Assembly: GCF_988242995.1 (NCBI RefSeq)
Contig: NZ_OZ547043.1
DNA length: 64,000 nucleotides
Direction: 5' to 3' (one strand)
Shown piece by piece: positions 4,188 through 51,064 of this stretch. Position numbers and translations under genes: made by a program. Within the stretch, counting starts at the first letter, position 1. Each line of letters opens with the position of its first letter. Below the pieces are notes generated by a model. That model saw only the letters and a program-made list of their open reading frames with translations, had not been told where the DNA came from and did not search any database.

Positions 4188-5245
4188 CCGAACCGTTAAA
4201 ACCACGTATTGATTTCGACGGTCCACTGGAGGTTGATCAGAATCCAAAATTCAGGGCGCAACAGACCTTTGACGAAAATCAGGCGCAAAATTTTGCCCCG
4301 GCCACGCTCGACGAAGCGCAGGAAGAAGAGGGGCAAGTTGAAGCGGTGATGGACGCAGCGTTACGTCCGAAACGCAGCCTGTGGCGCAAAATGGTGATGG
4401 GCGGGTTGGCTCTGTTTGGCGCAAGCGTTGTCGGGCAGGGCGTGCAGTGGACAATGAACGCCTGGCAAACTCAGGATTGGGTAGCGCTGGGTGGATGTGC
4501 CGCTGGGGCATTGATTATCGGCGCTGGCGTAGGTTCTGTGGTAACAGAGTGGCGGCGCTTATGGCGCTTGCGACAGCGCGCCCATGAACGCGACGAAGCG
4601 CGCGATTTGTTGCACAGTCACGGTACGGGTAAAGGCCGCGCATTTTGCGAAAAACTGGCGCAGCAGGCGGGCATCGACCAGTCGCATCCGGCACTGCAAC
4701 GCTGGTATGCCTCAATCCATGAAACGCAAAACGATCGTGAAGTGGTCAGCCTGTATGCTCATCTGGTCCAGCCGGTTTTAGATGCCCAGGCGCGGCGCGA
4801 AATCAGCCGTTCGGCGGCGGAATCAACGTTGATGATTGCGGTCAGCCCGCTGGCGCTGGTGGATATGGCATTTATCGCCTGGCGCAATCTGCGTTTGATC
4901 AATCGCATCGCCACGCTGTATGGCATTGAACTGGGATATTACAGCCGTTTGCGCCTGTTTAAGCTGGTATTGCTGAATATCGCTTTCGCCGGAGCCAGCG
5001 AACTGGTGCGCGAAGTGGGGATGGACTGGATGTCGCAAGATCTCGCTGCGCGTTTGTCTACCCGGGCAGCTCAGGGGATTGGTGCAGGACTTCTGACGGC
5101 ACGACTGGGGATTAAAGCTATGGAGCTTTGCCGCCCTCTGCCGTGGATTGACGATGACAAACCTCGCCTCGGGGATTTCCGTCGTCAGCTTATCGGTCAG
5201 GTGAAAGAGACGCTGCAAAAAGGCAAAACGCCCAGCGAAAAATAA
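4184..5245 (+). CDS. ycjF: YcjF family inner membrane protein (DUF697)
   Basis: 353 aa; start overlaps ycjX stop (coupled). Confidence 0.9.
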
Positions 5246-5392
5246 TGCAATATCGGGTGCTGACCGGATATCTTTACGCCGAAGTGCCCGTTTTTCCGTC
5301 TTTGTGTCAATGATTGTTGACAGAAACCTTCCTGCTATCCAAATAGTGTCATATCATCATATTAATTGTTCTTTTTTCAGGTGAAGGTTCCC

Positions 5393-6934
5393 ATGCGTCT
5401 GGAAGTCTTTTGTGAAGACCGACTCGGTCTGACCCGCGAATTACTCGATCTACTCGTGCTAAGAGGCATTGATTTACGCGGTATTGAGATTGACCCCATT
5501 GGGCGAATCTACCTCAATTTTGCTGAACTGGAGTTTGAGAGTTTCAGCAGTCTGATGGCCGAAATACGCCGTATTGCAGGTGTTACCGATGTCCGTACTG
5601 TCCCGTGGATGCCTTCTGAACGTGAGCATCTGGCGTTGAGCGCGTTACTGGAAGCGTTGCCTGAACCTGTGCTCTCTGTCGATATGAAAAGCAAAGTGGA
5701 TATGGCGAACCCGGCGAGCTGTCAGCTTTTTGGGCAAAAATTGGATCGCCTGCGCAACCATACCGCCGCGCAATTGATTAACGGCTTTAATTTTTTGCGT
5801 TGGCTGGAAAGCGAACCGCAGGATTCGCATAACGAGCATGTCGTTATTAATGGGCAGAATTTCCTGATGGAGATTACGCCTGTTTATCTTCAGGATGAAA
5901 ATGATCAACACGTCCTGACCGGTGCGGTGGTGATGTTGCGATCAACGATTCGTATGGGTCGTCAGTTGCAAAATGTCGCCGCCCAGGACGTCAGCGCCTT
6001 TAGTCAAATTGTCGCCGTCAGCCCGAAAATGAAGCATGTTGTCGAACAGGCGCAGAAACTGGCGATGCTAAGCGCGCCATTGCTGATAACCGGTGATACC
6101 GGCACCGGAAAAGATCTCTTTGCGTATGCCTGTCATCAGGCAAGCCCACGCGCGGGCAAACCCTATCTGGCGCTGAACTGTGCTTCTATCCCGGAAGATG
6201 CGGTCGAGAGTGAACTGTTTGGTCATGCTCCGGAAGGGAAGAAAGGGTTCTTTGAGCAGGCGAACGGTGGTTCGGTACTGCTGGATGAAATAGGTGAGAT
6301 GTCACCACGGATGCAGGCGAAATTACTGCGTTTCCTTAATGATGGCACTTTCCGTCGGGTTGGCGAAGACCATGAGGTGCATGTCGATGTGCGGGTGATT
6401 TGCGCTACGCAGAAGAATCTGGTCGAACTGGTGCAAAAAGGCGTGTTCCGTGAAGATCTCTATTATCGTCTGAACGTGTTGACGCTCAATCTGCCGCCGC
6501 TACGTGACTGTCCGCAGGACATCATGCCTTTAACCGAGCTGTTCGTCGCCCGCTTTGCCGACGAGCAGGGCGTGCCGCGTCCGAAACTGGCCGCTGACCT
6601 GAATACTGTACTTACGCGTTATGCGTGGCCGGGAAATGTGCGGCAGTTAAAGAACGCTATTTATCGCGCACTAACACAACTGGACGGTTATGAGCTGCGT
6701 CCTCAGGATATTTTGTTGCCGGATTATGACGCCGCAACGGTAGCCGTGGGCGAAGATGCGATGGAAGGTTCGCTGGACGAAATCACCAGCCGTTTTGAAC
6801 GCTCGGTATTAACCCAGCTTTATCGCAATTATCCCAGCACGCGCAAACTGGCAAAACGTCTCGGCGTTTCGCATACCGCGATTGCCAATAAGTTGCGGGA
6901 ATATGGTCTGAGTCAGAAGAAGAACGAAGAGTAA
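5393..6934 (+). CDS. tyrR: Transcriptional regulator TyrR
   Basis: 513 aa from MRLEVFCEDRLGLTREL; AAA+ GDTGTGK motif; C-terminal HTH. Confidence 0.95.
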   Translation: MRLEVFCEDRLGLTRELLDLLVLRGIDLRGIEIDPIGRIYLNFAELEFESFSSLMAEIRRIAGVTDVRTVPWMPSEREHLALSALLEALPEPVLSVDMKSKVDMANPASCQLFGQKLDRLRNHTAAQLINGFNFLRWLESEPQDSHNEHVVINGQNFLMEITPVYLQDENDQHVLTGAVVMLRSTIRMGRQLQNVAAQDVSAFSQIVAVSPKMKHVVEQAQKLAMLSAPLLITGDTGTGKDLFAYACHQASPRAGKPYLALNCASIPEDAVESELFGHAPEGKKGFFEQANGGSVLLDEIGEMSPRMQAKLLRFLNDGTFRRVGEDHEVHVDVRVICATQKNLVELVQKGVFREDLYYRLNVLTLNLPPLRDCPQDIMPLTELFVARFADEQGVPRPKLAADLNTVLTRYAWPGNVRQLKNAIYRALTQLDGYELRPQDILLPDYDAATVAVGEDAMEGSLDEITSRFERSVLTQLYRNYPSTRKLAKRLGVSHTAIANKLREYGLSQKKNEE

Positions 6935-35525: not shown

Positions 35526-35624
35526 TGTTTTTTAACCTCAACTCAGATTAAAATTCGTTTTGTTCAGTGAATGATCTTGCCGGATACACACTGTTCATAG
35601 CCTGCGCCATACGCAGGCTATTTC

Positions 35625-36337
35625 TTGTGCACAGAAAACCCCCAGCTAGGCTGGGGGTTCCGGAAAGCTTTCAGCTTTGAGCCAGTTATTAAAACCCCTT
35701 TTGATTTGTTAAAACACTTTGCGGTCTGGCAACTGCAAGTGTCAAACAAGAAATCAAAAGGGGGTCCCAATGGGGAACGAAAAGAGCTTAGCGCACACCC
35801 GATGGAACTGTAAATATCACATAGTTTTTGCGCCAAAATACCGAAGACAGGTGTTCTACAGAGAGAAGCGTAGAGCAATAGGCAGTATTTTGAGAAAGCT
35901 GTGTGAGTGGAAAAGCGTACGGATTCTGGAAGCTGAATGCTGTGCAGATTATATCCATATGCTTGTGGAGATCCCGCCCAAAATGAGCGTATCCGGCTTT
36001 ATGGGATATCTGAAAGGGAAAAGCAGTCTGATGCTTTACGAGCAGTTTGGTGATTTGAAATTCAAATACAGGAACAGGGAGTTCTGGTGCAGAGGGTACT
36101 ACGTCGATACAGTGGGTAAGAACACGGCGAAGATACAGGATTACATAAAGCACCAGCTTGAAGAGGATAAAATGGGAGAGCAGTTATCGATTCCCTATCC
36201 GGGCAGCCCGTTTACGGGCCGTAAGTAACGAAGTTGGATGCAAATGTCAGATCGTGTGCGCCTGTTAGGGCGCGGCTGGTAAGAGAGCCTTATAGGCGCA
36301 TTTGAAAAACCTCCGGCTATGCCGGAGGATATTTATT
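35625..36337 (+). mobile_element. IS200-type insertion sequence, copy A
   Basis: About 711 bp near-identical to copy B; left-end hairpin CCCCCAGCTAGGCTGGGGG, right-end hairpin CCTCCGGCTATGCCGGAGG; contains tnpA. Confidence 0.9.
35770..36228 (+). CDS. tnpA: IS200/IS605 family Y1 (HUH) transposase TnpA
   Basis: 152 aa MGNEKSLAHTRWNCKYHIVFAPKYRRQVFY with HxH motif CADYIHMLVEIPP. Confidence 0.92.
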   Translation: MGNEKSLAHTRWNCKYHIVFAPKYRRQVFYREKRRAIGSILRKLCEWKSVRILEAECCADYIHMLVEIPPKMSVSGFMGYLKGKSSLMLYEQFGDLKFKYRNREFWCRGYYVDTVGKNTAKIQDYIKHQLEEDKMGEQLSIPYPGSPFTGRK

Positions 36338-39968: not shown

Positions 39969-40826
39969 ATGCTGTTTGTGCTTATTCTAAGCCACCGGGC
40001 AGCATCATACGGGGCAATTATGGCCGCATTACCATACATGCAACTGTACATAGCTGATTACCTGGCTGACACCATGCATTTGTCAGCAGAGGAGCATGGT
40101 GCGTATTTGTTGCTGATGTTCAATTACTGGCAAACAGGAAAGCCAATACCTAAAAACAGGCTGGCAAAAATTGCCCGTCTGACTAACGAGCGATGGGCTG
40201 ATGTTGAACCATCCTTGCAGGAGTTTTTTTGCGATAACGGCGAGGAATGGGTGCATCTTCGGATTGAGGAAGATCTGGCATCAGTCAGGGAAAAATTAAC
40301 CAAAAAATCAGCCGCAGGAAAAGCATCTGTTCAGGCCAGAAGAAGCAGAAAGGAAGCAGATGTTCAAACAAAACAAGAGAGAAATTTAACAGGTGTTCAA
40401 ACAGATGTTGAAGTGGTGTTTGAACATGATGTCAACACAAAGGCAACTAATAAAGATACAGATAAAGATCTAAAAACAGATCCCCCCCTAAATCCCCCCC
40501 GGGGGAATCGAGGTGTCAAAAAGTTTGACCCTCTGGATATTGCTTTGCCGAACTGGATTTCTGTCTCGCTTTGGCGTGAGTGGGTTGAATTTCGCCAGGC
40601 ATTGCGAAAACCGATTCGAACGGAGCAGGGCGCTAACGGGGCGATACGGGAGCTGGAAAAATTCCGCCAGCAGGGTTTTTCACCTGAGCAGGTGATTCGA
40701 CACAGCATCGCCAATGAATACCAGGGCTTGTTCGCGCCGAAAGGTGTTCGACCTGAGACGTTACTCCGACAGGTTAACACCGTCTCGTTACCGGATAGTG
40801 CGATCCCGCCAGGCTTCAGGGGGTAA
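39969..40826 (+). CDS. ydaU: Phage replication initiation protein (O-like) YdaU
   Basis: 285 aa; precedes DnaC-like ydaV. Confidence 0.82.
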   Translation: MLFVLILSHRAASYGAIMAALPYMQLYIADYLADTMHLSAEEHGAYLLLMFNYWQTGKPIPKNRLAKIARLTNERWADVEPSLQEFFCDNGEEWVHLRIEEDLASVREKLTKKSAAGKASVQARRSRKEADVQTKQERNLTGVQTDVEVVFEHDVNTKATNKDTDKDLKTDPPLNPPRGNRGVKKFDPLDIALPNWISVSLWREWVEFRQALRKPIRTEQGANGAIRELEKFRQQGFSPEQVIRHSIANEYQGLFAPKGVRPETLLRQVNTVSLPDSAIPPGFRG

Positions 40827-40832
40827 CTGACC

Positions 40833-41579
40833 ATGAAAAATATTGCGACAGGCGATGTTCTTGAACGTATCCGCAGACTGGCCCCGTCACATGTAACCGC
40901 GCCATTCAAGACGGTAGCGGAGTGGCGCGAGTGGCAACTTTCCGAAGGCCAGAAACGTTGTGAGGAGATCAACCGTCAGAATCGTCAGTTGCGGGTGGAA
41001 AAAATTCTTAATCGCTCTGGCATCCAGCCATTGCACCGCAAATGCTCGTTTTCGAATTACCAGGTGCAGAACGAAGGGCAGCGATACGCGTTGAGTCAGG
41101 CGAAATCCATCGCTGATGAACTGATGACCGGGTGTACAAATTTTGCGTTCAGCGGAAAACCTGGTACCGGAAAAAACCATCTGGCGGCGGCTATCGGGAA
41201 TCGCCTGCTGAAAGATGGCCAGACAGTGATTGTGGTTACCGTGGCTGATGTCATGAGTGCCCTACACGCCAGCTATGACGACGGGCAATCAGGCGAAAAA
41301 TTTTTGCGGGAACTGTGCCAAGTGGATCTGCTGGTTCTTGATGAAATTGGCATTCAGCGCGAGACAAAAAACGAGCAGGTGGTGCTGCACCAGATTGTTG
41401 ATCGCCGGACAGCGTCGATGCGCAGCGTGGGGATGCTGACAAACCTGAATTATGAGGCCATGAAAACATTGCTCGGCGAGAGGATTATGGATCGCATGAC
41501 CATGAACGGCGGGCGATGGGTGAATTTTAACTGGGAGAGCTGGCGTCCGAATGTCGTCCAGCCAGGAATTGCGAAGTAA
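40833..41579 (+). CDS. ydaV: DnaC-like helicase loader (IstB-like ATPase) YdaV
   Basis: 248 aa; Walker [16 protein letters not shown], Walker B LLVLDEIG. Confidence 0.88.
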
Positions 41580-41601
41580 TTTTTACCGGGAGAAAAATTT
41601 A

Positions 41602-42363
41602 ATGGAGACTGTTTTTGACGCACTGAAAGCAATGGGAAAAGCCACATCCATAGAACTTGCTGCGCGACTTGATATCAGCCGTGAAGAAGTGCTGAACGAA
41701 CTATGGGAACTGAAAAAGGCTGGTTTCGTTGATAAAAGCGCGTACACCTGGCGTGTGGCTGATAACAACGTTCAGCAGGAACAGCCAGCGCCGGCAGAAC
41801 TGCCGGAAGAAACTACCACGGCAACAGTCGCGAAAATTTCAGAGAGCGATTTAACTGCGACGATTGAACAACGTGGTCCACTAACTGCGGATGAACTGGC
41901 TACGTTGTTCGGTACCACATCCCGCAAAGTGGCTTCAACGCTGGCAATGGCAATCAGCAAAGCTCGTCTGATTCGCGTTAATCAGAACGGTAAATTTCGT
42001 TACTGCATGCCGGGCGGTAATTTACCAGCAGAGCCGAAAGCTGCATCGGTAGCGGAAACAGATGGTAAAGCCTTTCCTCAGCTAGCCGGTGTTGCGTTAC
42101 CAGTACAGGAAGCTGCAACACAGGAAGATATTAAAACAGAAACTGTGGCGGACATTGTGCAGTCGTTGCCATCGTTTACTGAAACGCAAGCGGATAACCT
42201 GATTTTACCATCGCTGCATATGGCAAACCGTGAACTGCGTCGGGCGAAAAATCATGTCCAGAAGTGGGAGCGAGTCTGCGCCGCGCTGCGGGAGCTGAAC
42301 AAGCACCGGGATATTGTTCGACAGATTTTCGATTCCTCCAGTCGTATTGTGTCGGAAAAGTGA
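41602..42363 (+). CDS. ydaW: Rac prophage protein YdaW (apparently full-length here)
   Basis: about 253 aa from [30 protein letters not shown] (winged-helix-like N-terminus). Confidence 0.7.
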
Positions 42364-42378
42364 TTGCCGGAGGCACCT

Positions 42379-42810
42379 ATGGCAAAAGTATTTACACCAG
42401 AAGAGCGGGAAAAAATTAAAGGGCAGGTTGTTGAACTTGTACGTCTGAGCGGTCGCGAGACGTTACGGGCTCTGGAGGCTAAAACCGGTGCATCAAGGTA
42501 TTACATAAGCACTCTCGCCAGAGAACTGGTCGCCAGTGGTGATGTTTACAATTCAGGCTACGGATTATTCCCGTCTGAGCAGGCTCGTAAGGACTGGCAA
42601 AACGCCCGCAAAAAACTATCCAGGGCAAAGGTGAAAAAAACGGTTGTGGTTGATCCTGACCTTATCTGGTCATTACCAGACGGAGAAATACGCCGCTACG
42701 ACAGGCGCCTGAATATAATCTGTCGCGAGTGCCGGAAAAGCGAAGTTATGCAGCGTGTACTGGCATTTTACCAGAGTAATTTCAGGAGGTTGTCTGGTGA
42801 GCACGATTAA
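42379..42810 (+). CDS. Hypothetical protein with CxxC pair, function unknown
   Basis: 143 aa from MAKVFTPEEREKIKGQVVELV; contains IICRECRK. Confidence 0.55.
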   Translation: MAKVFTPEEREKIKGQVVELVRLSGRETLRALEAKTGASRYYISTLARELVASGDVYNSGYGLFPSEQARKDWQNARKKLSRAKVKKTVVVDPDLIWSLPDGEIRRYDRRLNIICRECRKSEVMQRVLAFYQSNFRRLSGEHD

Positions 42811-42843
42811 CTACTAGGGGGGATAACAATAAAATAAAGCCTC

Positions 42844-43884
42844 CTAGGAGGCTTTGATTATATTAAGCAAATGTTTTCCAATCGTTTCAGACATCTTCGG
42901 AGGGACCGCATTTCCTATTTGACGAGCCCGAGATTGCAAAGAACCAATAAATTTATAATCCAAAGGAAATGTTTGTAGACACGCTGCTTCACGAACCGAT
43001 ATTGCTCGATTTTGTGTTGGATGTCCAAAACGTCCATTTGAATAGCTAATACAACGAGTTGTTAGTCCGCTGGCTGGTTTGTCCCAACTCAAACGTCCAT
43101 ATACGTCTGTATGCCCTTTATGGTTACGATGGCATTCTAAAATCAATTCATCTGGCCAAAATTCTCGACTTCCACCTTCAGGAGTGCATTTTATTCTACG
43201 TAAATTAAGCTCTGATAAGCGTGCAGCTTCATGATCAGGAATACTATTATGCTTTTCTCCTGCTTCTATCTTCGGTAAATTAGCGATCCAGTCCTTTACT
43301 GTTGAATAGGGAGTATTTCCAACCCCATGTGTAGGAGAAGGCAATGCGACATAAAAATCCTTGGATGCAATGAGCACTAATCTTTCTCGCGTCTGTGGTA
43401 CACCGTACCACGCAGCTGGCATTACTTTATAATCTACACTATATCCCTTTGATGAAAGCATTTCTAAAAACATCATGAATGTTCCTTCATTTTTGTTAAA
43501 CTTTTGCATTCCTGGCACGTTTTCAACAAAAATAAAATCAGGCATATAATGCTCTACAAAGCGACTGAATTCCTTTAATAGATCTAATCGTGGATCATCA
43601 TTTTTCTTATTTGAGTTTTGCTTAGAGTACGGTTGACAAGGCGCACATCCTGAAAAAAGAATGTAATCATTACGATGTTTTTTTACTAACTTGTTTATGG
43701 CATTGTTGTCGATTAACCTAATGTCCGAGTTAATAAAAGCAGCCTGCGGGAAATTTGCACGAAATGAACTGGCTGCATCAACGTCGAAATCGAGGCCAAA
43801 AACAATATCCATTCCAGCTTGATGGAAACCTTGGCTGGTTCCACCACAACCGGAAAAGAAGTCAAACACTTTGATTTTTTTCAT
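42844..43884 (-). CDS. DNA (cytosine-5)-methyltransferase
   Basis: 346 aa from MKKIKVFDFFSGCGG; motif I FSGCGG, motif IV GCAPCQPYS, motif VI ENVPGM, motif VIII QTRERLVLIA, motif X GNAVPP; RBS AGAGGGA. Confidence 0.9.
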   Translation of the reverse strand: MKKIKVFDFFSGCGGTSQGFHQAGMDIVFGLDFDVDAASSFRANFPQAAFINSDIRLIDNNAINKLVKKHRNDYILFSGCAPCQPYSKQNSNKKNDDPRLDLLKEFSRFVEHYMPDFIFVENVPGMQKFNKNEGTFMMFLEMLSSKGYSVDYKVMPAAWYGVPQTRERLVLIASKDFYVALPSPTHGVGNTPYSTVKDWIANLPKIEAGEKHNSIPDHEAARLSELNLRRIKCTPEGGSREFWPDELILECHRNHKGHTDVYGRLSWDKPASGLTTRCISYSNGRFGHPTQNRAISVREAACLQTFPLDYKFIGSLQSRARQIGNAVPPKMSETIGKHLLNIIKAS

Positions 43885-43907
43885 TTTTCCCTCTGCATCC
43901 AGAATCA

Positions 43908-45737
43908 CTACCTAATGATACCACGGTCAAGAGCCTGAGTAATTATTTTTCTTATTTTTATAAATTCAGGCAATTCATTTTTAAGTCTTGCGGTCATCAT
44001 TTGTTGGAGGCAAAAAATTTCCTCTGCATTTACTTCTTCTTTATCATACAGGTGTTGCGCTAATAATCTTATTTGATTCTTATACAGTTCTGGATCATTA
44101 GAACTCCAGGTCTGTGAATCAATTATTTCTTTTTCACTTGGCGTAATTGCCTTTTCAATGAGTAATTGTTCGGGAGTATCAAATGGTAAATACTTCACTT
44201 TATTGAATGCATACTCAAGCACTTGCCTTTTGAGTCTATTAGATTCTTGTTCATTTTTTTTGCCATTACTACCACTGGCATTGATAATTAACTCGCAACC
44301 ATAATATTTGCACATTGTATTAACTAAATCAGCATCAGCAATTTCACTAATTCTTACTGGTTTTATTTTTTTGTTTTTATCACCATCAAGTAAAAACAAA
44401 ATATCATTGCGTTCTACCACAGCGTAACTGGGAAGATGCTTGCTTAAAATGGTCTCCGAACCACCTGGTATATAACTTACACTAAATGATAAGCTTAATC
44501 TTTCATCATTTTTAATCGCTTTATCTATAATTGCTTTAGCTAATTTATCTTCTACAATTATTGTTTTCTTGTTAATATCATGCCCTAGCTCTATAAAAGC
44601 TTCATCCGGTGCTATATTTTGAACTATTTTAGCTGTTTCACTCTCTTCATCAAAAACAAATAATTTAATGGCATCTTTGGGAAGAGTGTTCACAATAACA
44701 GGAGAATGGGTTGATATTACCACTTGATGTTTTTTCTGCTCAACAATAGAGTACAGAACATCCATCATCCTTTTTTGTGCACCAGGGTGAAGTGAAACTT
44801 CTGGTTCGTCAAGAAGAATTAATGAATTAGGTTTGGCCGAATAAATATTGAGTATTAGTGAAACTATTGCAAATTCACCACTTCCAGCAAACGCTTCTGT
44901 ATAGTTCAACTTATCAGTTGAAAGTAAAGCGGTTCCTCCTCTGGTTCCAAATAACCGATGCTCAAGAAATTTAATGACTTTATATTTTTTCCCTAATATA
45001 AATGAGACGTGCTCAACTAGTTCTGGCGCCAAGGTTATATTTTTAACAATGGTTTCCGCCCCCCAGAGTCTTAAATTACTTAGCTTTTCATCAAAAGCTT
45101 TCTTTATATATTTAGATTTGCTTCTGATATAGTCTTGCTTTGTAATTAATACACCACTCTTCTTCTTTCTTAATTTAAAATCAGAGTGATACATACATCT
45201 ATCAAATGCACTTATTTCCGATCTGAAATCTAGGAAAACCAATCCCTTCTTGATTTTTTTCCATCTGGTTGCATTACTATTAGCACCCAGATCATCCGAA
45301 ATACTCTCCATGTTATCACCAACAGATGGTCGACTTGTTTCCCAATAATCGATTGTTTTCTTGGTAGCATTGATACGTGCTTGGAGTATTTCAACTAAAC
45401 GGCCATCAGCATTTTTATATCCATATATATATCTAGGTTTAAGAGAACTGCCATCAGCAAGTTTTAGGTCAGGAAACTCATCTGTTTCAGTTGTGAACCA
45501 ATAACGAGTTATATTTTTACCATGTGGGCAACCAAATAGCGCTTTGATAACAGAACTTTTATTAGTTCCATTTTTTCCTACTAAAGCCGTTATAGGGAAC
45601 TGAAAATCGATCCTTGCATTCTGCTCTATATTTTTAAAGTATGGAAAACGGATATGTTGTATGAATGGTTCAAATTCACCGTTTTTTAACGCGCACTGGA
45701 GTGTTCGAATTTTGCTCTTGTATGCGGAAGTGCTCAT
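43908..45737 (-). CDS. ABC-type ATPase fused to C-terminal Toprim-like domain (OLD-family-like nuclease candidate)
   Basis: 609 aa; Walker A LVGKNGTNKSS, Walker B/D-loop SLILLDEPEVSLHP, H-loop VISTHSPVI; C-terminal IIVEDKLAKA glutamate and FLLDGDKN DxD suggest Toprim; 23 bp upstream of MTase on same strand. Confidence 0.7.
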   Translation of the reverse strand: MSTSAYKSKIRTLQCALKNGEFEPFIQHIRFPYFKNIEQNARIDFQFPITALVGKNGTNKSSVIKALFGCPHGKNITRYWFTTETDEFPDLKLADGSSLKPRYIYGYKNADGRLVEILQARINATKKTIDYWETSRPSVGDNMESISDDLGANSNATRWKKIKKGLVFLDFRSEISAFDRCMYHSDFKLRKKKSGVLITKQDYIRSKSKYIKKAFDEKLSNLRLWGAETIVKNITLAPELVEHVSFILGKKYKVIKFLEHRLFGTRGGTALLSTDKLNYTEAFAGSGEFAIVSLILNIYSAKPNSLILLDEPEVSLHPGAQKRMMDVLYSIVEQKKHQVVISTHSPVIVNTLPKDAIKLFVFDEESETAKIVQNIAPDEAFIELGHDINKKTIIVEDKLAKAIIDKAIKNDERLSLSFSVSYIPGGSETILSKHLPSYAVVERNDILFLLDGDKNKKIKPVRISEIADADLVNTMCKYYGCELIINASGSNGKKNEQESNRLKRQVLEYAFNKVKYLPFDTPEQLLIEKAITPSEKEIIDSQTWSSNDPELYKNQIRLLAQHLYDKEEVNAEEIFCLQQMMTARLKNELPEFIKIRKIITQALDRGIIR

Positions 45738-45885
45738 TGTTTACTAAAGTCCATAATAGGCTATTAACAGGTTGAGGATGACATGATAACGATTTTTAAT
45801 GCAGATAAAAGAGGTTTGTTGGTTAGCACACAACAGAAAAAGTGACCTTACCGCTTGAACGAAAGGTAAGGGTAAGTAGGCTGTG

Positions 45886-46038
45886 ATGCAGCAAAAGACG
45901 ATGTTAATCGCCCTGATTGTCATCTGTATTACCGTCGTTGTGATGGCACTGGTAACAAGGAAAGACTTCTGCGAGGTACAAATCCGAACCGGTCAGACGG
46001 AGGTCGCTGTCTTCACAGCTTACGAACCTGAGGAGTGA
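45886..46038 (+). CDS. Hok/Gef-family type I toxin
   Basis: 50 aa MQQKTMLIALIVICITVVVMALVTRKDFCEVQIRTGQTEVAVFTAYEPEE; single TM then conserved C-terminal tail; 3' hairpin GCGAGGGAGAAATCCCTCGC at 46047-46066; below ORF-track size cutoff. Confidence 0.8.
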   Translation: MQQKTMLIALIVICITVVVMALVTRKDFCEVQIRTGQTEVAVFTAYEPEE

Positions 46039-46503
46039 GAGACCAGGCGAGGGAGAAATCCCTCGCCACCTCTGATGAGTCAGGCATCCTCAACGCACCC
46101 GCACTTAACCAACTTTGGCGGGTATATTTTATCTGTGAATATTTTTATAAAAATAATGCCCACGCACAGCATAAAACAAAAAGTATTACAGATAAAAAAG
46201 GAACGTAATGTGCAGATTTGTTGTTTTCCATATTTACTCACCTTAATATGATTAACCCTAATAGGGTTGTTATTTCAGCGGTTTTCAAATGAGATATTAT
46301 GGTGATCTGGCAGATTTGCATAACATTAAAATTTAATTTGTTTAACCGCTTTTAATAATAAGCGTTGTTTGTATCCCAGCAATCTGTTGTTTGGTTTTTA
46401 TTCCATTAAGGTGGGGCTTTACACTGGAGCCAGTTTATTTATACTTCATACGTCAGCCTGAACAACTGGCATCTGCTGCGCTGCGCCATCGAGAGATTAA
46501 GAA

Positions 46504-47103
46504 ATGGCGCATATACAACTGGTCAAACAAACCTCTTCCGGATTACTTCTCCCGGCGACGCCGGAGAGTTGTGATTTTCTGCATCAAATCAAAATAGGCG
46601 AGTGGATACACGCAGACTTTAAGCGTGTGCGTAACTACGCATTCCACAAGCGTTTTTTCAAACTCCTGCAACTGGGATTCGATTACTGGACTCCGGTCGG
46701 TGGGGCGATCACGCCTCGCGAACGAGAACAGCTGTCTGGTTTCGTTGATTACCTGTGCGAATCAGTTGGTCGGGAACACACGCCAGCCCTGAGTGATGCC
46801 GCAGAGCAATATCTGAATACAGTTGCGACACGCAGAACCCGGGATACGGCATTGCTAAAGTCGTTTGAGGCTTTTCGCGAGTGGGTAACCATTCAGGCTG
46901 GATTTTACACCGAACATTTTTATCCGGACGGTAGCCGCGGGCGTCGGGCAAAATCTATCGCTTTTGCGAATATGGACGAAACCGAGTTTCAGCAGGTTTA
47001 TAAATCTGTTCTGAATGTGCTGTGGAACTGGATTCTGTTCCGTAAATTTTCCTCTCCGGAACAAGTCGAAAATGTGGCCGCGCAGCTGCTGGAGTTTGCG
47101 TAA
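46504..47103 (+). CDS. Phage nin-region protein, DUF1367 (YbcN-like)
   Basis: 199 aa; position between replication genes and Q. Confidence 0.6.
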   Translation: MAHIQLVKQTSSGLLLPATPESCDFLHQIKIGEWIHADFKRVRNYAFHKRFFKLLQLGFDYWTPVGGAITPREREQLSGFVDYLCESVGREHTPALSDAAEQYLNTVATRRTRDTALLKSFEAFREWVTIQAGFYTEHFYPDGSRGRRAKSIAFANMDETEFQQVYKSVLNVLWNWILFRKFSSPEQVENVAAQLLEFA

Positions 47104-47393
47104 TGGTGGATTTACGTAAAGCGGCGCGGGGGCAGATGTGCACCGTCAGAATTCCTGGCTACTGCAATCACAATCCCGAAACATCTGTGCTGGCGCATTA
47201 CAGGCTGGCGGGGACGTGCGGAACAGCGACAAAACCACACGATATGCAGGCAGCGATTGCCTGTAGCTCATGCCACGATTTAATCGACGGGCGGGTAAAA
47301 ACCAGCGATTACACCAAAGAAGAATTACGCCTGATGCATGCAGAAGGTGTTTTTCGCACACAAGAAATCTGGAGAAAGGAAGGTTATTTATGA
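47103..47393 (+). CDS. Phage nin-region Cys-rich protein, DUF1364 (YbcO-like)
   Basis: 96 aa with CxxC...CxxC spacing (CTVRIPGYC, CSSCHD). Confidence 0.6.
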   Translation: MVDLRKAARGQMCTVRIPGYCNHNPETSVLAHYRLAGTCGTATKPHDMQAAIACSSCHDLIDGRVKTSDYTKEELRLMHAEGVFRTQEIWRKEGYL

Positions 47394-47932
47394 TTTACCC
47401 AACAAATACAGGCAAAAGCGGGGAACACCTTCGTCTCACCACGCTGGAAAGTGTCTGGATTCAGGGAAAACTGCGCATGTGGGGGCGCTGGTCGTATATT
47501 GGCGGCGGTAAGACGGGAAATATGTTTAACCAGTTGCTGGCATCCAAAAAATTGACGAAAACAGCCGTCAATGAAGCCCTGCGCAGGATGAAAAAAGCGG
47601 GAATAGAGAAACCTGAGCTGGAAGCGTTTTTGCGAGAGATGATCAATGGCAAGCAAAAGACCTGGCTGGCGCATTGTACTGATGCAGAGGCGTTATGTAT
47701 TGATAGAGTCATAAGTGAGGTGCTGGCAGAGCATCCTGGATTGATTAGTGTCCTCCGGCAACGGTATGAAGGACGGGGGATGACTAAGCGCAAAATGGCT
47801 GAATTGCTAAATGATGCACATCCTGAGTGGTGTTTTAGCACATGCGAAAAGCGAATTGCTAATTGGTTGGCTGTTGCTGAGTATGCCCTATATATTCCCA
47901 TGCGAGAATTATTTGCTCAAAAAATAGCTTGA
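47390..47932 (+). CDS. Late-gene antiterminator Q-like protein
   Basis: 180 aa from MIYPTNTGKSGEHLRLTTLE; immediately upstream of lysis region. Confidence 0.6.
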   Translation: MIYPTNTGKSGEHLRLTTLESVWIQGKLRMWGRWSYIGGGKTGNMFNQLLASKKLTKTAVNEALRRMKKAGIEKPELEAFLREMINGKQKTWLAHCTDAEALCIDRVISEVLAEHPGLISVLRQRYEGRGMTKRKMAELLNDAHPEWCFSTCEKRIANWLAVAEYALYIPMRELFAQKIA

Positions 47933-48038
47933 TTTTTTACGCATAAACTGCTTCAATTCCGGTATGCTTCGCAAAGCTGTATCGCGAGGCGAACCAAGCG
48001 CATGAACTTTACCAGAACCCGCCATTGAGCGGGTTTTG

Positions 48039-48751
48039 TTGTGCACAGAAAACCCCCAGCTAGGCTGGGGGTTCCGGAAAGCTTTCAGCTTTGAGCCAGT
48101 TATTAAAACCCCTTTTGATTTGTTAAAACACTTTGCGGTCTGGCAACTGCAAGTGTCAAACAAGAAATCAAAAGGGGGTCCCAATGGGGAACGAAAAGAG
48201 CTTAGCGCACACCCGATGGAACTGTAAATATCACATAGTTTTTGCGCCAAAATACCGAAGACAGGTGTTCTACAGAGAGAAGCGTAGAGCAATAGGCAGT
48301 ATTTTGAGAAAGCTGTGTGAGTGGAAAAGCGTACGGATTCTGGAAGCTGAATGCTGTGCAGATTATATCCATATGCTTGTGGAGATCCCGCCCAAAATGA
48401 GCGTATCCGGCTTTATGGGATATCTGAAAGGGAAAAGCAGTCTGATGCTTTACGAGCAGTTTGGTGATTTGAAATTCAAATACAGGAACAGGGAGTTCTG
48501 GTGCAGAGGGTACTACGTCGATACAGTGGGTAAGAACACGGCGAAGATACAGGATTACATAAAGCACCAGCTTGAAGAGGATAAAATGGGAGAGCAGTTA
48601 TCGATTCCCTATCCGGGCAGCCCGTTTACGGGCCGTAAGTAACGAAGTTGGATGCAAATGTCAGATCGTGTGCGCCTGTTAGGGCGCGGCTGGTAAGAGA
48701 GCCTTATAGGCGCATTTGAAAAACCTCCGGCTATGCCGGAGGATATTTATT
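48039..48751 (+). mobile_element. IS200-type insertion sequence, copy B
   Basis: Near-identical to copy A, same orientation, same terminal hairpins. Confidence 0.9.
48184..48642 (+). CDS. tnpA: IS200/IS605 family Y1 transposase TnpA
   Basis: Identical 152 aa product to copy A. Confidence 0.92.
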   Translation: MGNEKSLAHTRWNCKYHIVFAPKYRRQVFYREKRRAIGSILRKLCEWKSVRILEAECCADYIHMLVEIPPKMSVSGFMGYLKGKSSLMLYEQFGDLKFKYRNREFWCRGYYVDTVGKNTAKIQDYIKHQLEEDKMGEQLSIPYPGSPFTGRK

Positions 48752-48864
48752 GTTTCTGGTACTGGCGAACCTGATGTTTCATTTCTGGAGCGCGATTCCT
48801 GGCGGAATACCTAGAATCGAGACATTCTGGTAAAATTGTTTTCAGTACAGGATGTGGAGGTGAG

Positions 48865-49434
48865 ATGAGAGAACTACCTAAAGATTATTTTTTAGGAGTA
48901 GATGATGAGCTCGTCGATTATCTTGAAAAACAAGGGGAAGAGACGATACGAGAGATTCATCTTTCTAACAAAACCAATGTTGAGAATGGATACAAACTTC
49001 TGAACATTCAGATTGTTGGAATTGGTTCATCTTTTTTATTGCTGACACAGAAAACTAATTTCGATTTTCTCACCGCCGGAATTACCACATTTACATTACT
49101 ATGGACATGGTGCGCCATTTACTTGGTATGTACTGGTTTATCTGTGAAGGTTAGGGGCCTGATCAATGCCCCTCCTGATCATCTATATCATGAAAAATAT
49201 AAGGATATGGAGCCCTCGAGCTTTAAAATATTCGCTGATGCAGGATATTTAGGACCTGATAAGTTATTGCCGCTTATACGAAGGTATCGCCTTGTTGACT
49301 TGAGTGATACAGCAAGAGAGTTACTGTTGGAAAATGAGAAAATCCGCACGAGTCTCGATAAAGCAAGGATGTATACCATCCTTGCTCCGGTAGCGGCGAT
49401 GTTTATCTCGGCTGTTTTTTTATATGTTCAATGA
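48865..49434 (+). CDS. Hypothetical membrane protein (cargo between Q and holin)
   Basis: 189 aa with hydrophobic segments (GIGSSFLLLTQ, TFTLLWTWCAIYLVCTGL, ILAPVAAMFISAVFLYV); AT-rich. Confidence 0.5.
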   Translation: MRELPKDYFLGVDDELVDYLEKQGEETIREIHLSNKTNVENGYKLLNIQIVGIGSSFLLLTQKTNFDFLTAGITTFTLLWTWCAIYLVCTGLSVKVRGLINAPPDHLYHEKYKDMEPSSFKIFADAGYLGPDKLLPLIRRYRLVDLSDTARELLLENEKIRTSLDKARMYTILAPVAAMFISAVFLYVQ

Positions 49435-49659
49435 CTGAGTCGGCAGAATCTCCAACAAAAACACGACGTGTAGCAAAGTCTGTAGTACTTTGTGTTGGAG
49501 TTGGTTTTGGTGCCACGGGGTGCTGAGGTTTATTTTCACCTTGTGGTTTGTTTTTTTCAGACATAAAAATCCTCTTTGTTTGAATTGTTACTTTTGGCGA
49601 TTTAACGATATCAAACACGAGTATATACCGCCAGAAGCTTAATCTGGCACTCCATCTGA

Positions 49660-49685
49660 CCCCGGCATGTCCCGGGGCTTTTTCG
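49660..49685 (+). terminator. Hairpin plus T-run upstream of holin (possible tR'-like terminator)
   Basis: CCCCGG-CATGTC-CCGGGG followed by CTTTTT. Confidence 0.4.
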
Positions 49686-49781
49686 TTGTTAGGCTCCGGA
49701 AACATCCTCGACTTCTTGTTAGCAAGCCTGAGAGCCTGAATCTTACACTTAGCACCATCCGAACTCTCGGAGGTGAGGCTT

Positions 49782-50123
49782 ATGAAAATGCACAATGCCC
49801 CTCATTCCTGGCCTGACTTACTGGAACTCTTACAAAGTTGGTGGCGTGGAGATACGCCGCTGGGTGCAGTGGTTATGTCAATTATTATGGCTGGTTTGCG
49901 CATTGCCTATTTTGGCGGTGGCGGCGGCTGGAAACGAAAAACGCTTGAGATTCTGCTTTGTGGTGCTCTGACGCTGACCTTTGCATCCGCGCTTGAGTAT
50001 GTCGGATGGCCTAAATCACTTTCTGTTGCCATTGGTGGTGGGGTGGGGCTGATTGGTGTTGATGCTATTCGTAGTGCGGCAATGAGGGTCATCGGTAACA
50101 AGTTCGGTGCCCATAAGGAGTAA
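49782..50123 (+). CDS. Class I holin with dual-start motif
   Basis: 113 aa from MKMHNAPHS (Met-Lys-Met like lambda S107/S105); hydrophobic segments; upstream of endolysin. Confidence 0.75.
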   Translation: MKMHNAPHSWPDLLELLQSWWRGDTPLGAVVMSIIMAGLRIAYFGGGGGWKRKTLEILLCGALTLTFASALEYVGWPKSLSVAIGGGVGLIGVDAIRSAAMRVIGNKFGAHKE

Positions 50124-50126
50124 TTA

Positions 50127-50603
50127 ATGCAGACACTTAATTCCCAGCGTAAAGCTTTCCTTGATATGGTGGCATGGTCAGAAGGAACAGATAACGGACG
50201 GCAGAAAACCAGAAATCACGGTTATGATATTATTGTCGGTGGCGAACTGTTCACTGATTACTCCGATCACCCCCGCAAACTTGTCACGCTAAATCCGAAA
50301 CTCAAATCAACAGCCGCTGGACGTTACCAGCTTCTTTCACGCTGGTGGGATGCCTACCGCAAGCAACTTGGCCTGAAAGATTTTTCTCCAGAAAGTCAGG
50401 ATGCTGTAGCGCTGCAGCAGATTAAAGAGCGTGGCGCTTTGCCGATGATTGATCGCGGTGATATCCGTCAGGCTATCGACCGTTGCAGCAATATATGGGC
50501 TTCACTGCCGGGCGCTGGTTATGGTCAGTTCGAGCATAAGGCTGACAGTCTGATTGCAAAATTCAAAGAAGCTGGCGGAACGGTCAGAGAGATTGAGGTA
50601 TGA
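50127..50603 (+). CDS. Lambda R-like endolysin (lytic transglycosylase)
   Basis: 158 aa; near-identical over most of its length to lambda R as recalled ([28 protein letters not shown]). Confidence 0.92.
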
Positions 50604-51064
50604 GCAGAGTAACCGCGATTATCTCCGCTCTGGTTATCTGCATCGTCGTCTGCCTGTCATGGGGTGTTAATCATTACCGTGATAACGCCATCGCCTACAA
50701 AGAACAGCGCGACAAAAATGCCAGAGAACTGAAGCTGGCGAACGCGGCAATTACTGAGATGCAGATGCGTCAGCGTGATGTTGCTGCGCTCGATGCAAAA
50801 TACACGAAGGAGTTAGCTGATGCGAAAGCTGAAAATGATGCTCTGCGTGATGATGTTGCCGCTGGTCGTCGTCGGTTGCACATCAAAGCAGTCTGTCAGT
50901 CAGTGCGTGAAGCCACCACCGCCTCCGGCGTGGATAATGCAGCCTCCCCCCGACTGGCAGACACCGCTGAACGGGATTATTTCACCCTCCGGGAACGACT
51001 GGTAATGATGCAGGCCCAACTTGAAGGTGCTCAGCAATACATAACCGAGCAGTGTTTAAAGTAA
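50600..51064 (+). CDS. Spanin inner-membrane subunit Rz
   Basis: 154 aa [30 protein letters not shown]; overlaps endolysin stop. Confidence 0.9.
50820..51005 (+). CDS. Spanin outer-membrane lipoprotein Rz1 (embedded in Rz, +1 frame)
   Basis: 61 aa; lipobox VVGC and proline-rich [15 protein letters not shown]. Confidence 0.88.

Follow-up and report, generated by a model that had tools for sequence, protein, structure and literature searches.

A Ren-related DUF977 (LygF) gene at the end of the replication block of a Rac-type prophage

The window, which is the whole stretch of DNA that was analysed (64,000 nucleotides of contig NZ_OZ547043.1, assembly GCF_988242995.1), has a gene at 42379-42810 whose product belongs to the Ren family as one of its long forms (Pfam DUF977, PHROG 142, gene name lygF). 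The homology of this product to phage lambda Ren is near-certain. The gene closes the early-right replication block of Rac-type and other lambdoid prophages. The preferred reading, a DUF977/Ren-family member that belongs to the replication block and has a Ren-like accessory role, is given a probability of about 0.6; the functional part of this reading, which is drawn by analogy with lambda Ren, has roughly even odds. The gene is an already known, ordinary and very common lambdoid-prophage gene, and the only unusual part of the copy in the window is its last 11 residues, which go with the junction to a neighbouring methyltransferase (MTase)/ATPase cassette.

Gene position and coding status

The gene and the elements directly upstream of it are the following.

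41602-42363, plus strand: DUF1627 (full-length ydaW) gene, the usual upstream partner (Pfam DUF1627, E 4e-97)
42369-42373, plus strand: Shine-Dalgarno sequence GGAGG, 5 nt before the ATG, read from the sequence
42379-42810, plus strand: DUF977 / LygF / Ren-like gene, 143 aa plus stop, 100% identical to RefSeq CDS WP_001151113.1 of E. coli FORC 064

The reading frame starts with the ATG at 42379 and ends with a TAA at 42808-42810, which agrees with the 143-aa ORF after ydaW that was described in the original prediction. The ydaW stop codon is at 42361-42363 and the DUF977 gene starts 15 nt later; a terminator-like site was looked for in these 15 nt and none was listed. The ORF listing takes the frame back to a TTG at 42364 (148 aa). 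The ATG is the start in the RefSeq annotation, and the homologues all open with MAK or MA. At exactly the coordinates that correspond to 42379-42810, RefSeq labels the E. coli FORC 064 gene "DUF977 family protein" (100% identity).

The ORF is a real gene under purifying selection and not a chance ORF, because it matches Pfam DUF977 and because synonymous differences exceed non-synonymous differences along the gene (approximately 0.19 versus 0.07 per codon among 54 distinct alleles). A hidden cis element was considered as the reason for the strong DNA conservation of the 3' half and was rejected, since the synonymous diversity is roughly even (0.12-0.27 per codon). It is reduced only in the first 10 codons. 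A search for an overlapping non-coding RNA with Rfam at permissive thresholds found no RNA family in 41000-47000.

Family membership and relation to lambda Ren

The protein matches the Pfam DUF977 model (PF06163) with an E-value of 4.6e-27 and 95.2 bits, far above the curated gathering threshold of 22.1 bits, and the match places residues 1-135 on model positions 1-133/134. It also matches PHROG 142, "Ren-like exclusion protein", with an E-value of 9.8e-45, and phage lambda Ren matches the same profile at 1.6e-41. When an alignment of 17 DUF977 sequences was compared with an alignment of 12 Ren sequences, hhalign gave a probability of 96.6% and an E-value of 5.2e-10 over 83 columns, which span both the winged helix and the C-terminal motif. 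Two results of direct comparison count against the Ren-like reading. The pairwise BLASTP similarity between the window protein and lambda Ren is confined to 20 C-terminal residues (55% identity, NIICRECRKSEVMQRVLAFY versus NLVFKECRQSAAMKRVLAVY), and lambda Ren does not reach the threshold of the Pfam DUF977 model.

The protein had been called unknown, which does not agree with the existing annotation. Phage GenBank records name the gene lygF or "Ren-like exclusion protein", and the proteins annotated as LygF in 24 phage records, including that of the inducible phage Rac-SA53, are 85-97% identical to the window protein. The LygF label originates in the Sdr I region of Salmonella Enteritidis and has no function attached to it. 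Compared with PF06163 as a whole and with LygF of Sdr I and of Rac-SA53, the window protein is a full-length member with no substantive difference. A winged-helix fold for DUF977 was already assigned by Kinch et al. 2009 (PMC2686095).

The DUF977 family is narrow, and the contexts that were read are lambdoid-prophage-like. A phmmer search against 1.84 billion representative proteins returned 101 matches, mostly fragments, and no better-characterised distant relative was found among these representatives. A sequence search of the PDB with the window protein gave nothing below an E-value of 0.07, and an NCBIfam search gave no match. A DUF977 homologue with 35% identity (P0168, at 5001-5426 of loci L094/L095) is not part of a recognisable prophage replication block. 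Its neighbours are an acetyltransferase/colicin-pyocin-like gene region on one side and a fimbrial usher on the other, and it is probably an orphan remnant.

The gene ren occupies lambda 40280-40570 and encodes 96 aa of PHROG 142, whereas the window protein has 143 aa. Both proteins have a winged helix and the C-terminal motif N-x-I/V-x-x-E-C-R-x-S-x-x-M-x-R-V-L-A-x-Y. They differ in that the window protein has approximately 45 additional residues, a helix and a basic linker, and in that Ren has a Phe where the window protein has its first Cys. The absence of the extra residues and of the CxxC from Ren is a further point against the Ren-like reading. The upstream replication proteins are unrelated (O/P in lambda, YdaU/YdaV/YdaW in the window), and lambda Ren is the only member with a known Rex-related phenotype.

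Domain architecture

The protein is made up of four segments, which are listed with their coordinates in the window.

42397-42570, plus strand: winged helix-turn-helix, codons 7-64 (helices 7-24, 29-36 and 40-53, then a short wing); AF2 pLDDT above 90, supported by Foldseek
42577-42708, plus strand: codons 67-110, a helix (67-85) with a basic stretch followed by a low-confidence linker; no counterpart in lambda Ren, the most variable part of the family
42712-42771, plus strand: family signature N-x-[IV]-C-x-E-C-R-x-S-x-x-M-x-R-[VI]-L-x-F-Y, codons 112-131, common to lambda Ren; the CxxC is at 42721-42732
42772-42810, plus strand: variable tail and mosaic joint, codons 132-143 plus stop; the tail SNFRRLSGEHD is seen only with the cassette

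In the AF2 model of the window protein the linker at residues 86-110 is of low confidence and is followed by a C-terminal helix (116-138). The AF2 model of lambda Ren has the same winged helix, which is followed directly by two short C-terminal helices, so the order of the elements is the same in the two proteins. The residues that are invariant when lambda Ren is included in the alignment are N112, E117, C118, R119, S121, M124 and R126. Among DUF977 sequences, including those with as little as 31% identity, N112, C115, E117, C118, R119, S121, M124, R126 and F130 do not vary. The tail has 27 distinct forms among 80 viral loci.

The winged-helix region of the model matched MarR, MntR, GntR and other winged helices in Foldseek, and the alignments cover only the core of approximately 60 residues. 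Against the PDB and BFVD the matches were generic winged helices with E-values of about 6e-3 or worse and none at or below 0.001, and lambda Ren was absent among the matches listed. Together with the C-terminal helix, which has a pLDDT of only 58-76, these generic matches also count against the Ren-like reading. Pfam HTH families scored below threshold on the window protein. The fold of residues 7-64 is shared with the MarR/ArsR/GntR-type transcription factors, but there is no significant sequence or fold score to them (best Foldseek E-value approximately 1e-2). The window protein also lacks the MarR dimerisation helices and an effector domain, and its C-terminal motif has no counterpart in these factors.

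The original prediction proposed a small nucleic-acid-binding or regulatory protein on the basis of a CxxC pair and basic stretches. Both features are present (C115-R-E-C118, and ARKKLSRAKVKKT at residues 76-88). The winged helix makes such a fold plausible; the CxxC alone cannot form a four-ligand zinc site.

The main rival to the Ren-like reading is that the protein is a sequence-specific winged-helix transcription factor for phage genes, such as those of the early operon or the nin-like or cargo genes that follow. The winged helix is modelled with confidence, its nearest folds are the MarR, MntR and GntR repressors, and lambda Ren is termed 'a transcriptional activator' in one review (PMC8614690). 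The recognition-helix region (residues 41-50) is variable, as would be expected if the targets differ among phages. The distribution of conservation is less favourable. The wing and the C-terminal motif are the most conserved parts of the protein and the recognition helix is not, and the protein stays conserved while what lies 3' of its gene varies widely, with at least 17 unrelated sequence classes. With the weak fold matches added to this, a transcription factor is considered unlikely.

Inter-subunit CxxC zinc sites exist, for example in the Rad50 hook, and the CxxC of the window protein could be a metal-binding or redox-sensing site of this type, with zinc held between two subunits that contribute two Cys each. 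Such a site would be compatible with the other roles. C115 and C118 are invariant in 17 of 17 DUF977 sequences, down to 31% identity, and are located at the start of the C-terminal helix in the AF2 model. They are, however, the sole conserved Cys in the DUF977 alignment, which has no conserved His. In the clade of lambda Ren, C118 is retained (as C79) and an invariant Phe (F76) takes the place of C115, which points to packing rather than ligation; since this clade has Phe at that position, the motif functions without the Cys pair. The conservation pattern argues for a structural or packing role of the CxxC, and an inter-subunit zinc site is quite improbable. A zinc site with four Cys or His ligands in one chain was ruled out because C115 and C118 are the only conserved ligands, and a classical zinc finger or zinc ribbon is therefore unlikely.

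Replication block upstream of the gene

The DUF977 gene follows directly after replication genes in every prophage context examined. DUF1627 is upstream in 68 of the 76 informative viral loci (68 of 80 viral contigs); another replication protein is found there in 8 of the 80 contigs, and 4 of the 80 have a contig edge. The upstream genes in the annotated prophage contexts include the sets YdaU/YdaV/DUF1627 and DnaT-like/P-like/DUF1627, a set with HTH_36/IstB-like genes and no DUF1627, and a single protein of 320-356 aa. The order DUF1376/DnaT, DUF1627, DUF977 is kept even with a homologue that is only 31% identical, and the complete Rac-type genome of phage Rac-SA53 has ydaW and lygF in the same order as the window.

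The position matches that of lambda ren, the gene next to P with which the nin region begins. The classical nin5 deletion starts in the 3' end of ren (PMC3349717). The original prediction asked whether the gene travels with ydaW or with the MTase/ATPase pair, and whether it has an assigned nin-region function. It travels with the replication genes, usually ydaW, and not with the MTase/ATPase pair. The DUF977 gene and ydaW are also kept together in prophages without the cassette, and the lambda homologue of the DUF977 gene, ren, opens the nin region. By the original prediction's own terms, this essentially refutes a shared module with the cassette.

The upstream neighbour has HTH-family matches of its own. 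Residues at approximately 20-63 of the DUF1627/ydaW protein (41602-42363) match several HTH-family models (Pfam HTH_Crp_2, HTH_20). A further stretch at approximately 100-150 is weakly Ren-winged-helix-like and may make this protein a distant paralogue of its downstream neighbour. Paralogy is not claimed, given that PHROG 142 matches ydaW residues 100-151 with an E-value of 8e-5 and hhalign gives a probability of 18%.

Cargo slot downstream of the gene

Two features lie on the downstream side of the gene.

42835-42856, no strand assigned: bidirectional terminator-like hairpin AAAGCCTCCTAGGAGGCTTT between the convergent genes, overlapping the MTase stop codon, on the cassette side of the joint
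42844-45737, minus strand: C5 cytosine methyltransferase and OLD/AAA_21-type ATPase, neighbouring cargo that is not part of the feature

The MTase ORF (42844-43908, minus strand) is convergent with the DUF977 gene, and the gap between them is 33 bp (42811-42843) as first described. The cassette region between the DUF977 gene and hok is 42811-45880, and the best PADLOC matches of the cassette are MTase_II/DruM and HEC-04/ATPase-Toprim.

Small HTH controller proteins occur in restriction-modification systems, and the protein could in principle be a component of the MTase/ATPase module, such as a controller protein, as had been suggested for it. It adjoins the MTase convergently, 33 bp from the MTase stop, and all 31 cassettes adjoin a DUF977 gene. 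Such a role is effectively excluded by the synteny counts. The DUF977 gene is found in 3765 of 5426 complete E. coli genomes (approximately 70% of genomes, often in several copies; 6282 places in all) and the cassette in 31 of the 5426, so the gene is approximately 120 times more widespread. The window's MTase is downstream in only 2 of approximately 80 viral contigs (78-80 loci; 2 of 78 in the count of viral loci). The gene is also on the strand opposite to the cassette and in the upstream operon, its homology to cassette-free prophages extends over its full length as far as the stop, and a PADLOC search with the DUF977 protein gave no match at an E-value of 0.01 or below.

The DUF977 gene is the last gene to be conserved ahead of a cargo slot of variable content, and a flank of the slot rather than a member of the cargo. 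This is because the cassettes share one junction, because the match of cassette-less genomes to the window ends at approximately 42811-42818, and because more distant alleles diverge in the last 10 or so codons. All 31 cassettes have one identical left junction with the DUF977 gene and occupy the same slot. The prophage backbones that carry them are of at least three kinds, namely the Rac racR type, the O103 RM8385 type and that of EC11, whose replication genes are DnaT-like/P-like. This suggests that the cassette has spread by homologous recombination through conserved flanks. The conserved DUF977 sequence and hok on the other side would serve as the homologous flanks for the exchange of different cargoes. 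The first 800 bp 3' of the gene account for the at least 17 sequence classes mentioned above, which were counted in 80 viral contigs. The downstream examples include a DUF4406 gene (E24377A), an alpha/beta hydrolase (O157:H7), a methyltransferase fragment plus queH, a string of small unknown genes, and the prophage end; hok lies further downstream in the intact prophages among the annotated examples. The gene had been taken to mark the left boundary of the cargo region, which holds, as prophage homology stops in its last 10 or so codons or just past its stop. The boundary is placed just past 42810, with the cargo starting at approximately 42811-42818, and the DUF977 gene should not be counted as cargo.

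The tail of the gene retains a CAGGAGG followed by a GTG (42783-42810, ...TTTCAGGAGGTTGTCTGGTGAGC...). In cassette-free prophages such as that of E24377A, the next gene (DUF4406) has an overlapping start with the same CAGGAGG ahead of it. The tail may be the relic of a translationally coupled downstream gene that was displaced by the cassette.

The hairpin AAAGCCTCCTAGGAGGCTTT is perfect, with an 8-9-bp GC-rich stem, and reads as a terminator in both directions because it has T-runs on both strands. Rightward early transcription out of the DUF977 gene would meet it ahead of the nin-like and late-regulator genes.

Proposed role

The analysis shows that the protein is a family member and a homologue of Ren, how it is built, where its gene lies and that the gene is independent of the cassette; the Ren-like function, the partners and the mechanism that follow are what we infer by analogy with lambda Ren. 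The product of the DUF977 gene is translated from the rightward early transcript that also carries ydaU-ydaV-ydaW, and by homology and position it is the counterpart of lambda Ren. Its likely role is that of a non-essential accessory of the replication module, possibly one that protects against Rex-type exclusion. In the proposed model, the variable winged helix would contact DNA or a replication protein that is specific to the phage. The invariant C-terminal motif (NxICxECRxSxxMxRVLAFY) would bind a partner that all these phages share, which could be a host factor or an exclusion system. Acting together, the two parts would modulate or shield phage replication. This model of a common and a phage-specific partner fits the distribution of conservation across the family, in which the wing and the C-terminal motif are conserved despite unrelated upstream replication proteins, and the recognition-helix region and the linker vary.

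Toothman and Herskowitz (1980) reportedly found that Ren lets lambda resist Rex-dependent exclusion. Ren is non-essential and dispensable for plaque formation (PMC10695390). It has been described as "likely involved in DNA replication", with two-hybrid interactions with Rex proteins (bioRxiv 10.1101/2021.04.19.439022). No rexAB genes were found in the parts of Rac examined, which is one more point against the Ren-like reading. Since these parts lack rexAB, a need to escape the Rex of the same prophage is unlikely to explain why the gene has been selected here.

A bolder form of the Ren-like reading makes DUF977/Ren a widespread anti-exclusion (anti-abortive-infection) family that is kept as the closing gene of every lambdoid replication module. 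In this form, a common sensor of phage replication intermediates, encoded by the host or by a prophage, would be neutralised by the invariant C-terminal motif, and the DUF977-specific CxxC would act in it as a zinc or redox element between subunits. This is speculative and has a low probability. If true, it would give a handle on what Rex-type systems sense, a question that has been open for decades. DUF977/Ren is among the commonest prophage genes in E. coli, and defining its function would also clarify the long-unexplained relationship between lambda ren and Rex; this would be a property of the whole family and is not particular to the locus in the window.

The Rac locus in the window and in K-12

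The window has a fuller Rac prophage than K-12. The genes run from racR, ydaS and ydaT through ydaU (DUF1376), ydaV (IstB/DnaC-like) and full-length ydaW (DUF1627) to the DUF977 gene. This is followed by the convergent C5-methyltransferase, the OLD/AAA_21-type ATPase, hok, the DUF1367/DUF1364/DUF1133 genes, the lysis genes and trkG. The K-12 Rac is collinear with the window at 99% identity up to 42051 and resumes at 50620. It lacks 42052-50619, an 8.57-kb deletion from inside ydaW to the Rz region that takes the 3' end of ydaW, the DUF977 gene, the cassette, hok, the nin-like genes and most of the lysis genes. This deletion is why a truncated ydaW adjoins rzpR/rzoR in K-12, and the Rac alignment thus confirms the earlier statement that K-12 has the rzpR/rzoR remnants in place of the gene.

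An IS200-type insertion sequence is also present in the window. Both of its copies are absent from the FORC 064 locus, which is otherwise approximately 99.9% identical, and from K-12. The two copies are in direct orientation at approximately 35621-36337 and 48035-48751 (717 bp, 99.9% identical). The internal ORF at 35719-36228 matches Y1_Tnp with an E-value of 7e-37, and there are GC-rich hairpins at both ends of the element.
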